Under the pieces are notes generated by a model that saw only the letters and a program-made list of their open reading frames with translations, was not told where the DNA came from and searched no databases. The position numbers were made by a program, and so were the translations under genes. From a virus (taxonomy: Duplodnaviria > Heunggongvirae > Uroviricota > Caudoviricetes): a stretch of 5,513 bases of DNA. The stretch lies in the IMG/VR virus record IMGVR_UViG_2585427764_000006, one strand, 5' to 3'. Each line of letters opens with the position of its first letter. Position 1 is the first letter of the stretch. Positions 1 through 5,513 of this stretch are shown here, in pieces.

Positions 1-2
1 CG

Positions 3-320
3 GCAAAAGCGTTCGCATACCTGCTGAAACAGTGGGATGCACTGAACGTGTACTGCAGTAATGGCTGGGTGGAAATCGACAACAACATCGCAGAGAACGC
101 CTTACGGGGAGTGGCCGTAGGCCGGAAAAACTGGATGTTCGCGGGTTCCGACAGCGGTGGTGAACATGCGGCGGTGTTGTACTCGCTGATCGGCACATGC
201 CGTCTGAACAATGTGGAGCCAGAAAAGTGGCTGCGTTACGTCATTGAACATATCCAGGACTGGCCGGCAAACCGGGTACGCGATCTGTTGCCCTGGAAAG
301 TTGATCTGAGCTCTCAGTAA
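3..320 (+). CDS. IS66-family transposase, C-terminal fragment (5' end outside window)
   Basis: The frame is open from position 3 (AKAFAYLLKQWDALNVYCSNGWVEIDNNIAENALRGVAVGRKNWMFAGSDSGGEHAAVLYSLIGTCRLNNVEPEKWLRYV...). The EIDNN-AE-ALR...GRKNW-FAGS motif block is, from memory, characteristic of the C-terminus of IS66-family DDE transposases. The GTG at 48 in the ORF track is not the true start. Confidence 0.85.
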   Translation, partial: AKAFAYLLKQWDALNVYCSNGWVEIDNNIAENALRGVAVGRKNWMFAGSDSGGEHAAVLYSLIGTCRLNNVEPEKWLRYVIEHIQDWPANRVRDLLPWKVDLSSQ

Positions 321-321
321 A

Positions 322-350
322 TATCAATACGGTTCTGACGAGTCGCTTAC
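322..350 (-). repeat. Candidate IS66 terminal inverted repeat (right end)
   Basis: The minus strand reads 5'-GTAAGCGACTCGTCAGAACCGTATTGATAT from position 350. The exact IR length cannot be fixed without the left end. Confidence 0.5.
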
Positions 351-2220: not shown

Positions 2221-2224
2221 AAAA

Positions 2225-2239
2225 TGATAATAATTATCA
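2225..2239. promoter_or_regulatory. Fur-box-like 7-1-7 palindrome (candidate iron-responsive operator)
   Basis: TGATAATAATTATCA is a perfect inverted repeat, TGATAAT-n-ATTATCA, matching the core Fur box motif. It lies about 150 bp upstream of the DUF3950 start codon on the plus strand. Confidence 0.4.
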
Positions 2240-2387
2240 TCTGCATGTCACAACGTGCATCTACGCCATCAAACCACGTCAAATAATCAATTATGACGCA
2301 GGTATCATATTAATTGATCTGCATCAACTTAACGTAAAAACAACTTCAGACAATACAAATCAGCGACACTGAATACGGGACAACCTC

Positions 2388-2621: not shown

Positions 2622-2677
2622 AGCAATTTAGATAATCGTGCAGACTACACCCCTCATATCACATGGAAGGTACTACA

Positions 2678-3088
2678 ATGGCTCAGGTTGCCATTTTTAA
2701 ACAAATATTCAATAAAGTGCGAAATAATTTAAACTATCACTGGTTTTATTCTGAACTAAAACGTCACAATGTCTCACATTACATTTACTATTTAGCCACA
2801 GAGAATATTCATCTTGTTCTTGAAAACGATAATACGGTTTTAATAAAAGGACAGGGTAAGGTTGTAAATGTAAGATTTTCAAAAAATAAATGCCTTATAG
2901 AAGCCACCTTAAAAGGATTCAAATCAGGAGAGTTATCATTTTACGAATACAGGAAAAATCTTGCTACAGCAGGGGTTTTCAGATGGATTACAAATATCCA
3001 CGAAAACAAAAGGTATTACTATACCTTTGATAATTCATTACTCTTTACTGAGAACATTCAGAACACTACACAAATATTTCCGCACTAA
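2678..3088 (+). CDS. DUF1398 family protein (YbcV/YdfO-like prophage protein)
   Basis: The ORF track gives 2663-3088, but the second ATG at 2678 is preceded by GGAAGG with about 6 nt spacing, so [14 protein letters not shown]... is the likelier start. The C-terminal block [38 protein letters not shown] is characteristic of this family as I recall it. GC content is low, about 25-30% by eye. Confidence 0.8.
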
Positions 3089-3378: not shown

Positions 3379-3405
3379 CAATAAAAAGCCCCGCGAATGC
3401 GAGGC
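3379..3405 (-). terminator. Candidate rho-independent terminator downstream of the Rz/Rz1 lysis genes
   Basis: On the minus strand GCCTCGC-ATTC-GCGGGGC forms a 7-bp GC-rich stem (one G-U pair) followed directly by TTTTTAT. It sits about 175 bp downstream of the Rz stop. Confidence 0.45.
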
Positions 3406-3579
3406 TAAATCCTGGTATTTGTAATGACTGGCTCTTATCTCAACGCAGCCCCTTACCGCGCGCAAAATGCTCAATATCAAGCATCAGCAATGAGATGTTT
3501 AATCTGGATTCACTCCAGAAGTGAGCACCACCCTGTCTACAGAGCCAGATGTGAAGGATGATGAGTAAAATTATCGCTA

Positions 3580-4047
3580 TCATCGAAGGCATTGCGTCCT
3601 GATGTATTCCTGAAGCGTTCTCAGTGCTGTTTGGTCGCGGATAATTCCGTCCCGGATACCGAGAACGTTTCGTCCAGCAACTGGAGAGAGTTCGACGGTG
3701 GCATCATTGCCCATGCCGGAGGCGCTGGAGGTTTCGGCTGAGGATGGCACAGGGCATTTTCCTTTGACGAGCACCCGACCACCATTATCAAGCTTGCGCC
3801 GAAGAGCATCATTTTCAGCTTTCGCATCAGCTAACTCCTTCGTGTATTTATCATCGAGTGCATCAGCATCACGCTGGCGCTGCTGCATGTCAGTAATGGT
3901 GGCGTTCGCCTTCTCCAGTTCACTGGCCTTGTTATCGCGCTGTTCTTTGTAGGCGATTGCATTATCACGGTAATGATTAACAGCCCATGACAGGCAGACG
4001 ATGATGCAGATAACCAGAGCGGAGATAATCGCGGTTACCCTGCTCAT
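3580..4047 (-). CDS. Rz: Rz i-spanin (inner-membrane spanin subunit)
   Basis: [31 protein letters not shown]... matches the lambda Rz N-terminus with its single N-terminal transmembrane helix and coiled-coil region. The probable start is the ATG at 4047-4045, which overlaps the R stop as ATGA; the ORF track starts 4 codons earlier. The C-terminal third diverges from lambda Rz. Confidence 0.9.
3621..3827 (-). CDS. Rz1: Rz1 o-spanin (outer-membrane lipoprotein), embedded in the +1 frame of Rz
   Basis: [21 protein letters not shown]... has a lipobox (VVGC) followed by a proline-rich segment ([11 protein letters not shown]), and lies wholly inside Rz in another frame, the classic embedded-spanin architecture. 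Confidence 0.8.
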
Positions 4048-4541
4048 TGTTGCCCCCACAAACAGACCTCACGCTCAATCTCACGACGAGTCATCAGGCC
4101 TTTCCATTGCTTACCGCCAGCGTATGCCCAGCGACGTAGCTGGTCACATGCGCCCTTGATATCGCCCTGGTTTATTTTGCGAAGAAGAGTAGATGTTCTG
4201 AAATTGCCTGCGCCCACGTTATAGACGAACGAGTAAAGAGCGCCGCGCGTTGTTTCCGGTATATCGACTTTGATGTACGGGTTAATTTGTCTGGCTACCG
4301 TGGCAAGGTCTTTATTCAGGAGGGCTTTGCATTCTGCTTCGGTATACGTTTTACCGGGAATGATGTCTTTTCCTGTATGCCCGTGACATACAGTCCATAC
4401 GCCAACGATATCTTTGTATGGTATGTAGCTGACACCTTCCAGACCATCGTTACCACTTGGGCCAGTGATTAACACTGATGCTATAGCAATTGCTCCGCCA
4501 CCAATAGCAGCAGCAACGGCTTTTCGTAATGATGGAGGCAT
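4044..4541 (-). CDS. R: SAR endolysin (phage 21 R-type lysozyme)
   Basis: The 165-aa product has an N-terminal Gly/Ala-rich weakly hydrophobic signal-anchor-release domain ([18 protein letters not shown]), then a T4-lysozyme-like catalytic triad at E35, D44 and T50. It is near-identical to phage 21 R as recalled. The start overlaps the S stop (TAATG). Confidence 0.93.
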
Positions 4542-4756
4542 TATTCACCTCTCGCAGCCTTGCGCTTATCTTCTTTAATCTTGAAATAAAGGTTTGTCAG
4601 GTACGTCAGCAGGCCAAATACCAAGCTACCCAGCACACCTATTGCTGCCCACTGTGAGGGCGTGACTTTATCGAGCAACTGTAAAAACCAGTAGCCAGCA
4701 CTGCCTGCGGAGGTGCCGTAGGCAATGCCCGTTGTTAACTTATCCATGGATTTCAT
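4541..4756 (-). CDS. S: Pinholin (phage 21 S-type), dual-start class II holin
   Basis: The 71-aa product [26 protein letters not shown]... has the dual-start motif Met1-Lys-Ser-Met4 (antiholin and holin forms), two transmembrane segments and a charged C-terminus. A strong Shine-Dalgarno GGAGGTGAGGC lies immediately upstream. Confidence 0.93.
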
Positions 4757-5002: not shown

Positions 5003-5092
5003 GAAGGAGATCGGTGAGTAACATCGATGGAGATCGGTTCGTGTCACTTTCACAGAACCGTTTTTAAATTACCTTCACTGATCTCCTTCGGT
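5003..5092. repeat. IS21-family terminal repeat cluster
   Basis: GGAGATCGGT occurs as direct copies at 5006-5015 and 5029-5038, the first as GAAGGAGATCGGT from 5003. An inverted copy (GATCTCCTTC, reverse complement of GAAGGAGATC) lies at 5081-5090, overlapping the last istB codons. Confidence 0.5.
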
Positions 5093-5512
5093 CAACGGAG
5101 ATTGTATTTTCCGCATTGATTCTCCTTGAAGTTCGATCTTGATACTGCCATGAACCAGTCGATCTAGGATGGCATCCGCATGTGTGGAGTCTCCGATCAT
5201 TTTGTACCAGTTTTCCACCGGCAACTGGCTCACTACGATGATTGAGCCTCGTTGGTACATCAGATCCACTATTTCCAGCAGGTCGCTACGCTGTTCTGAT
5301 GAGAGAGGTTCCAGCCCCCAGTCATCCAGAAGCAGCAGATCGCTATTATTCAGCCTGGTCAAAAGTTTGCTGTATCTTCCATCAGCATGCCCCTGATAGC
5401 ACTGTTCCATCAGCGCTTTAAGGCGATAATAGTAGACCTTGTATCCCTGTCGGCAGGCATTATGACCAAGTGCACATGCCAGGAACGTTTTACCGCTGCC
5501 GGTGGCCCCGGT
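5075..5512 (-). CDS. istB: IS21-family IstB ATP-binding helper protein, C-terminal portion (5' end outside window)
   Basis: The frame is open to the window edge: TGATGSGKTFLACALGHNACRQGYKVYYYRLKALMEQCYQ... contains a Walker A P-loop (GATGSGKT), then a Walker B-like LLLLDDWG. The ORF track shows only the part from the internal Met at 5410. Confidence 0.88.
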   Translation of the reverse strand, partial: TGATGSGKTFLACALGHNACRQGYKVYYYRLKALMEQCYQGHADGRYSKLLTRLNNSDLLLLDDWGLEPLSSEQRSDLLEIVDLMYQRGSIIVVSQLPVENWYKMIGDSTHADAILDRLVHGSIKIELQGESMRKIQSPLTEGDQ

Positions 5513-5513
5513 C

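Follow-up and report, generated by a model that had tools for sequence, protein, structure and literature searches.

A Fur box beside cosQ in a lambda-like Escherichia coli prophage and its recurrence in related cos regions

Fur sites are on record at two prophage loci of Escherichia coli K-12. The site at nohB (now nohD, in DLP12) scored 25.3 bits with a (-9,+9) Fur model and appears, as a prediction only, in row 3 of Table 4 among the strong K-12 clusters, and the site at nohA (in Qin) scored 22.3 bits, lies at -233 from the start codon, is accompanied by an overlapping 12.6-bit site 6 bp away and gave, as an oligonucleotide, a gel shift at 150 nM Fur (Chen et al. 2007, PMC2189734). According to the account given there, a nohA fragment had also been selected in vivo by Fur titration (FURTA) on a multicopy plasmid (Vassinova & Kozyrev 2000, cited in PMC2189734). 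The published work on nohA and nohD treats the site as a nohA promoter site and leaves cos unmentioned, and behind the database entry of nohA as a Fur-regulated gene stands evidence of binding, not a demonstration of regulation.

We analysed a 5,513-nt stretch of viral DNA (hereafter the window), which covers the right-arm/left-arm junction of a lambda-like E. coli prophage in the orientation opposite to the lambda map (Table 1). Aligned to K-12 MG1655, the region around its palindrome corresponds to the nohD–ylcI intergenic region of DLP12 and to nohA–ynfO of Qin, and it also matches the right ends of lambda and of phage 434. The K-12 sites share with the window the locus, the 233-nt spacing (here from the Nu1 ATG at 1999 to the palindrome centre at 2232) and the neighbours, cos and YlcI/YnfO. 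The 19-mer at 2223–2241 is identical to that of DLP12, and the core is identical in DLP12 and phage 434. The Qin and lambda 19-mers show two differences, one at the unspecified central base and one at position -8, and within the 7-1-7 core they differ only at the central base. The window palindrome is the already documented nohD (DLP12)/nohA (Qin) Fur site and not a new one; it lies in another strain and in a prophage with added damage from IS66 and IS21, with no other material difference. The original prediction of a Fur box was therefore borne out, since the 19-mer is the DLP12 nohB/nohD site and the near-identical Qin site binds Fur. Direct binding is published for the Qin orthologue only.

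Table 1. Features of the window, with one protein family found at other cos loci
Feature	Position	Strand	Basis or remark
IS66-family element end	1-350		transposase C-terminus at 48-320 (Pfam)
Terminase large subunit gpA, truncated	351-1479	minus	Pfam GpA_ATPase and, of GpA_nuclease, the beginning only
Terminase small subunit Nu1 (nohD/nohA homologue)	1454-1999	minus	Pfam Phage_Nu1, E = 2.4e-101
cosB region, cosN to Nu1 start	2000-2176	minus	~97% identical to lambda
cosN, cohesive-end 12-mer GGGCGGCGACCT	2177-2188	minus	sequence reading; alignment to the 'cos site' feature in the lambda DE3 record
cosQ, GGGTCCT, packaging-termination signal	2212-2218	minus	identical to lambda 48473-48479
Full single-dimer Fur site, 9-1-9, AATGATAATAATTATCATC	2223-2241		17/18 versus AATGATAATNATTATCATT
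7-1-7 Fur box core, TGATAAT-A-ATTATCA, TGATAATAATTATCA	2225-2239		exact match
Sigma-70-like promoter, predicted, toward cos/Nu1	2224-2251	minus	10/12 consensus match
Putative second, weaker Fur dimer site, +6 bp offset	2231-2245		conserved CA at 2244-2245
Equivalents of two DLP12 transcription start sites	2283 and 2319	minus	alignment plus 777-nt genome-version shift
DUF3950 (YlcI/YnfO family) gene, divergent from cos	2388-2621	plus	Pfam DUF3950, E = 4.9e-21
DUF1398 (YbcV/YdfO family) gene	2663-3088	plus	Pfam DUF1398, E = 5.4e-43
Rz, lysozyme, holin	3580-4756	minus	
IS21 istB fragment, right of holin gene	from 5075 (5075-5513)		
Late-strand protein family (other cos loci)	53-781 in L174; 57-680 in L014		phi80 PHI80_66 (L174); N15 gp59 (L014); also L163, L164, L161, L155, L009

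The palindrome had been described as an exact TGATAAT-n-ATTATCA inverted repeat, and TGATAATAATTATCA at 2225–2239 indeed has 0 mismatches to TGATAATNATTATCA and 0 of 14 to the 7-1-7 pattern TGATAATnATTATCA. Its symmetry reaches 8-1-8 (ATGATAAT/ATTATCAT, 2224–2240), and the classical 19-bp Fur box GATAATGATAATCATTATC is matched at 16 of 19 positions at 2220–2238; a match as good as this (≤3 mismatches) occurred in none of 200 dinucleotide-preserving shuffles of the window. Three sites in the window lie within three mismatches of the 7-1-7 pattern, against a shuffle mean of 0.24, and none of the 200 shuffles reached three. A match to the Fur recognition sequence was thus found in all three forms, 7-1-7, 9-1-9 and the classical 19-mer. 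Set against the Baichoo–Helmann 7-1-7 and Chen–Schneider 9-1-9 (M9) models, the window site is perfect in the first and matches 17 of 18 positions in the second. Like classical Fur boxes, it has an overlapping second site, here a putative one, at 6-bp spacing, and at the sequence level it does not differ from the models.

Two cautions had accompanied the Fur reading. That the palindrome is a product of chance in AT-rich DNA is contradicted by the shuffles, which the window far exceeds, and by the conservation of its arms across sequence contexts (see below). As other regulators that might own the site we considered Zur and PerR-type boxes and the H-NS motif. Zur and PerR-type boxes have a core sequence unlike that of Fur, and the H-NS nucleation motif is resembled by some CGATAAT variants; the palindromic logo suits Fur better. 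Fur very probably binds the palindrome, which we regard as a true, high-affinity operator.

The position of the box was also as described, beside cos and about 150 bp ahead of the DUF3950 gene: the distances are 6 nt to cosQ (2212–2218) and 148 nt to the start of the DUF3950 open reading frame (2388). Further left, the end of the IS66-family element abuts gpA at ~350/351, a junction that we placed by eye against the lambda A sequence, and most of the gpA nuclease domain is cut off. Because gpA is cut by IS66 and an IS21 fragment adjoins the lysis genes, we regard this prophage as dead for packaging. The cosB region contains a 26-nt inverted repeat (2024–2049/2055–2080), and its subsites are presumably those established in the lambda literature. 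A cosQ annotation is carried by the phage 434 record OL657227, and the DUF3950 gene is YlcI/YnfO in RefSeq genome annotation. The stretch 1990–2400 was matched in 4,603 of 5,426 complete E. coli genomes, with flanks annotated as nohD or nohA (DNA-packaging protein) and YlcI/YnfO. This region of ~400 bp is ~95–100% identical across thousands of E. coli genomes and is therefore young.

In lambda the site is TGATAATCATTATCA at 48452–48466, next to cosQ at 48473–48479, and this cosQ-flank box is the sole perfect 7-1-7 match in the 48.5-kb genome. We compared cos regions at large, gathering them by their cosN–cosQ signature from IMG/VR, from one genome per species, and from named phages. The resulting 168 sites (loci L005–L172) formed 47 clusters, whose sequences on the right-hand side of cosQ are unrelated to one another. 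A box with ≤3 mismatches, starting 3–7 nt after cosQ, was present in 30 of the 47 clusters, where chance would give ~0.0055 per window searched. Among the bearers were lambda, 434, phi80 (perfect), mEp237, N15 (3 mismatches), 21-like phages and Stx1 phages, together with prophages of Citrobacter, Kluyvera, Kosakonia, Buttiauxella and Dryocola. The box was missing from the other 17 clusters, which include elements with capsid genes beside cos.

Taking one representative for each of the 30 clusters, we obtained the logo aaA-[T/C]GATAAT-[G/A]-ATTATCA-TTt-g-CA-t, after which information drops to ~0.1 bit. Conservation across the 30 contexts thus extends over positions 16–22 after the palindrome start (T-T-T-g-C-A-t), with background beyond. 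As this logo reproduces the 9-1-9 motif with its weak outer positions and a further site at +6, it argues for selection for Fur binding and not for a mere AT-rich palindrome. Among the papers that could be searched, none dealt with Fur and cosQ together or tied the terminase genes of a prophage to a Fur box; the sole paper combining 'Fur box', 'terminase' and 'prophage' was an unrelated Acinetobacter genome comparison. As a conserved cos-flank feature of lambda-like phages, the Fur box appears to be undescribed.

An extension of the host range beyond enteric bacteria was discarded, as the hits were lambda contamination and one phi80-like match, none of which was counted. Nine of them (L136, L137, L139, L140, L143, L150, L151, L154 and L156) come, as contigs of small size and low coverage, from assemblies that include Kitasatospora, Oceanobacillus, Veillonella, Shewanella and Leeuwenhoekiella, and because they have 78–100% of their 25-mers in common with lambda we attribute them to control DNA. 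The match in an Archangium assembly (L163) equals the phi80 right end over the ~50 nt compared.

What lies beyond the box bears on the main reading of the original prediction, in which the box is the operator of a divergent DUF3950–DUF1398 moron, repressed by iron and switched on in iron-poor host niches. The homology of the Stx1 phages, PhiR47_2 and PhiR46_1 to the window ends 0–7 nt past the box, which implies that the box goes with cos and not with the DUF3950 and DUF1398 genes. Rather than travelling with one cassette and controlling it, as a moron operator should, the box adjoins many unrelated cassettes. In most box-bearing clusters, moreover, the nearest real gene on the right-hand side is oriented toward cos. 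Such open reading frames match PHROG families, among them that of N15 gp59 and phi80 PHI80_66, in which only a few nucleotides separate the stop codon from the box, and at Sakai Sp15 the right-hand neighbour, also pointing toward cos, is Rz. With most neighbours in this orientation, the box cannot generally be the operator of a divergent accessory gene. Cos and the terminase operon alone are found beside it throughout.

The late-strand protein family that ends a few nucleotides from the Fur box (PHROGs 13555, 17079 and 16910) has a C-terminal PGGxIW followed after a few residues by R, and its middle regions are very different from one another.

For Fur occupancy and for expression in fur mutants we used the supplements of a Fur pan-regulon study (Gao et al. 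2023, PMC10164565). In K-12 MG1655, deletion of fur left nohD, nohQ, ydfO and ybcV unchanged, and in W3110 it lowered ynfO, ydfO, ylcI, ybcV, ybcW and nohD by 2–5 log2 (PMC10164565). The W3110 deletion, unlike that in MG1655, also lowers appY by 4 log2, which is likewise the opposite of derepression. No Fur ChIP-exo peak is listed for K-12 at the DLP12 or Qin copy, although both were predicted among the strongest sites (PMC10164565); near-duplicate K-12 copies may impede read mapping. The Fur iModulon does not list ydfO, and the text of the Beauchene 2015 Fur ChIP-seq paper mentions no gene of the nohA/nohD region.

In strain CFT073 the picture is different. An iron-replete Fur ChIP-exo peak is listed at 1424699–1424711 (Gao et al. 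2023, PMC10164565), and it overlaps a two-mismatch box at 1424694–1424708, 5 nt from cosQ in a 21-like prophage. In the CFT073 fur mutant, terminase-side genes rose by 1.3 to 2.1 log2 and a divergent pair of small genes by the box rose by 2.3 and 2.9 log2, that is, 5- to 8-fold (PMC10164565). This divergent pair is unrelated to DUF3950–DUF1398.

In O157 Sakai, the terminase operon of the Stx1 prophage Sp15 is the assigned target of peak P90 (2918933–2918945; PMC10164565). The box there, TGATAATGGTTATCA, lies at 2919057–2919071 of the current record, 239 nt upstream of terS. We read the gap of ~125 nt between peak and box as a genome-version shift because P91 needs the same shift upstream of stx1A. 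The target of P91, the best Fur-box match upstream of stx1A, is presumably the known stx1 Fur box. With this calibration, we infer that Fur occupies the Sp15 box. In the Sakai fur mutant, ECs2962 rose by 1.57 log2 (PMC10164565). Peaks P27, P34, P60 and P83 were considered as further cos-flank boxes and rejected, as they lie in tail tape-measure genes, a non-cos region of Sp4 and a P2-like prophage, none of them at cos.

The stx1 promoter box is the closest parallel for a host Fur operator in a lambdoid prophage, and like the cos-flank box it has an assigned ChIP-exo peak in Sakai. Sp15 carries both, ~7 kb apart. The stx1 box precedes the accessory gene stx1A, overlaps the promoter and has a clear iron-repressed output, whereas the cos-flank box is tied to cosQ and has neither a conserved promoter nor a conserved cargo gene.

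For DUF3950–DUF1398 the balance of this evidence is adverse. The box does lie upstream of the DUF3950 start, in non-coding DNA that is highly conserved, and a different divergent pair next to the equivalent CFT073 box responds to fur; by analogy with that pair, divergent control may operate in the gene module of the window. Against this, neither ynfO/ydfO nor ylcI/ybcV was derepressed in the K-12 fur mutants, no plus-strand promoter was predicted in 1950–2700, and the homology breaks and gene orientations described above tie the box to cos. Iron control of this gene pair, as originally proposed, is thus not supported, and we consider a DUF3950–DUF1398 operator unlikely.

The alternative offered with it, a transcript running through cos, suits the data better. 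Among the plus-strand Cappable-seq start sites up to ~1 Mb in the Ettwiller 2016 supplement, two fall in DLP12 of MG1655, at U00096.2 579737 and 579773, and transcripts from both, starting 45 and 81 nt upstream of the Fur box, would cross it on the way to cos and nohD. The ROSE supplement contains no start sites at the ylcI/ynfO coordinates. The rise of terminase-side genes in the CFT073 and Sakai fur mutants fits the same direction, and what does not fit is the unchanged expression of nohD and nohQ in MG1655 and the fall of nohD in W3110. The box occupies +45 to +59 of the nearer DLP12 start, an unusual position for Fur repression. The one good sigma-70-like promoter predicted by the scan points toward cos and has its -35 (GTGACA, 2251–2246) and -10 (TATCAT, 2229–2224) separated by a 16-nt spacer, with the -10 inside the Fur box; its -35 is not conserved across phages, and the -10 of lambda and Qin is TATCAC. 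We abandoned the simpler idea of the box as nothing but a promoter, as in neither direction does the logo conserve a -35 or -10 beyond the Fur motif. For the direction of regulation itself, a transcript crossing the box into cos and terminase, we would go no further than slightly below even odds.

Our preferred reading, to which we assign a probability of roughly 60%, is that the box serves, depending on iron, as a Fur operator or roadblock where cos meets terminase, and that it was inherited with the conserved cos flank. Iron-bound Fur would place one dimer on 2223–2241 and, probably, another on the site that overlaps it 6 bp farther from cosQ. The output would be a weak, iron-dependent repression of low-level sigma-70 transcription that enters the cos/terminase operon from the right, either by occlusion of the -10 inside the box or by a roadblock. 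In the gene module of the window, Fur might in addition repress the divergent DUF3950–DUF1398 unit. Besides the K-12 data and the unusual distance of the box from the mapped starts, two further observations weigh against this reading. A sigma-70 promoter that overlaps the box is not a conserved feature of these phages, and the rise seen in the CFT073 and Sakai mutants is modest (2.5- to 8-fold) and might be part of a wider activation of prophages, since further prophage genes are listed as up as well.

The constancy of its position raises the alternative that the box is a working part of cos, where Fur or a phage protein would aid packaging termination or shield the right end. The model for this is IHF at site I1 of lambda cosB, a conserved site of an abundant host DNA-binding protein within ~50 bp of the cohesive-end nick site, as is the cos-flank box; I1 has a demonstrated role in packaging initiation, whereas the box has no known packaging role. 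Across 30 contexts the box always lies 3–7 nt from cosQ, whatever genes follow; a footprint of ~30 bp at the box would touch cosQ, and no conserved promoter explains the position of what is the sole strong Fur site in lambda. However, the box lies outside the 7-bp cosQ, on the side far from cosN, and so is not among the lambda cos subsites; the phi80 record has a broad feature, 'cosQ; aka R4 region', that spans it as a region label only. The saturation mutagenesis of Wieczorek and Feiss in 2001 is said to have limited cosQ to 7 bp. A packaging role also predicts that the box co-varies with terminase type, and no such co-variation was found: for each TerS type (lambda, 21, N15/phi80) there are cos regions that have the box and others that lack it, and 17 of the 47 contexts manage without one. 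In a host screen that found 57 host genes whose deletion impairs lambda, ihfA and ihfB, the genes for the I1 protein, were recovered, and fur is unmentioned in the main text. A phage protein in place of Fur is argued against by the logo, which follows the Fur motif even at its weak outer positions. The box is probably not an essential packaging element, and we rate a working role in cos as very unlikely.

Multicopy titration suggests another use, in which one high-affinity site per replicating genome would act as a sponge for Fur during lytic growth and derepress host iron uptake, for instance to supply iron for the iron-dependent ribonucleotide reductase. Such a sponge needs no specific neighbour gene or orientation, which suits the varied contexts, and the Qin copy was isolated, by the account in the later paper, for titrating Fur on a multicopy plasmid (FURTA). 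An E. coli cell, however, contains several thousand Fur molecules, against ~100–200 phage copies with a single site each, and a sponge leaves the fixed position beside cosQ unexplained. We give this idea very little credence.

The state of the window prophage invites a third alternative, that the box is a relic without present function, kept by recent descent, and that Fur binding is incidental. The prophage is packaging-dead, the K-12 copies show neither Fur-dependent derepression nor a reported ChIP peak, and the surrounding region is young. This may describe the window copy; with its terminase large subunit cut by an insertion sequence, the window site is probably a retained relic that still binds Fur with little consequence for the host. 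It does not describe the family, in which the arms are kept while linker and right flank are randomised across 30 contexts in several enterobacterial genera, and as a general account we hold it to be highly improbable.

An operator or roadblock at the cos–terminase boundary would have implications mainly for the phages that carry it. The window itself is of little importance, as a catalogued Fur site of E. coli cryptic prophages in a packaging-dead prophage. Yet lambda, among the best-studied of genomes, has its sole perfect Fur box 6 bp from cosQ, and the position is conserved in most of the lambda-like cos regions sampled, in several enterobacterial genera. If the box has a function at the level of the phage, it would tie iron status to late-gene or packaging control or to prophage safety; one possible purpose would be to keep terminase silent in lysogens, since terminase can cut chromosomal cos. 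A broader proposal, that Fur is an iron-responsive partner, so far overlooked, of the lambda-like cos–terminase module and that the box was selected to act on cos or to gate terminase transcription and not as an accessory-gene switch, is one we put forward tentatively and with more doubt than conviction.

Several smaller features of these flanks deserve mention. In a Buttiauxella metagenome-assembled genome (L161), the first 70 nt after cosQ contain two perfect copies of TGATAATGATTATCA ~40 nt apart, and a Citrobacter locus (L135) has several Fur-like half-sites beside cosQ. Within the window, an intrinsic terminator, AGCCTCGCATTCGCGGGGCT followed by a T-run (3387–3406, minus strand), lies downstream of Rz on the late strand and divides the lysis genes from the DUF1398/DUF3950 region. 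The bor gene, present in DLP12 and lambda, is absent from the window.

From the Fur box to DUF3950 runs a non-coding stretch of 150 bp (2240–2387) that is near-invariant among the lambda-like copies and contains an 8-bp inverted repeat, ATCAATTA...TAATTGAT, at 2286–2293/2311–2318. A search of PDB sequences with the DUF3950 protein returned no match. The protein (RNIRFPNQMIEQINIAL...NFSAWVIEACRRRL) resembles a ribbon-helix-helix DNA binder and might use the inverted repeat at 2286–2318.

One box-less class, L023 and its relatives (nine loci), has a strong intrinsic terminator instead, GGCCGGAGAAATCCGGC plus T8, which ends 2 nt before cosQ and faces transcription heading to cos. The genes flanking cos in this class resemble the capsid genes that a satellite or an atypical phage would carry, and the cosB side has no TerS gene. 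The terminator hints that stopping or limiting read-in transcription at the cos boundary is a recurrent need.
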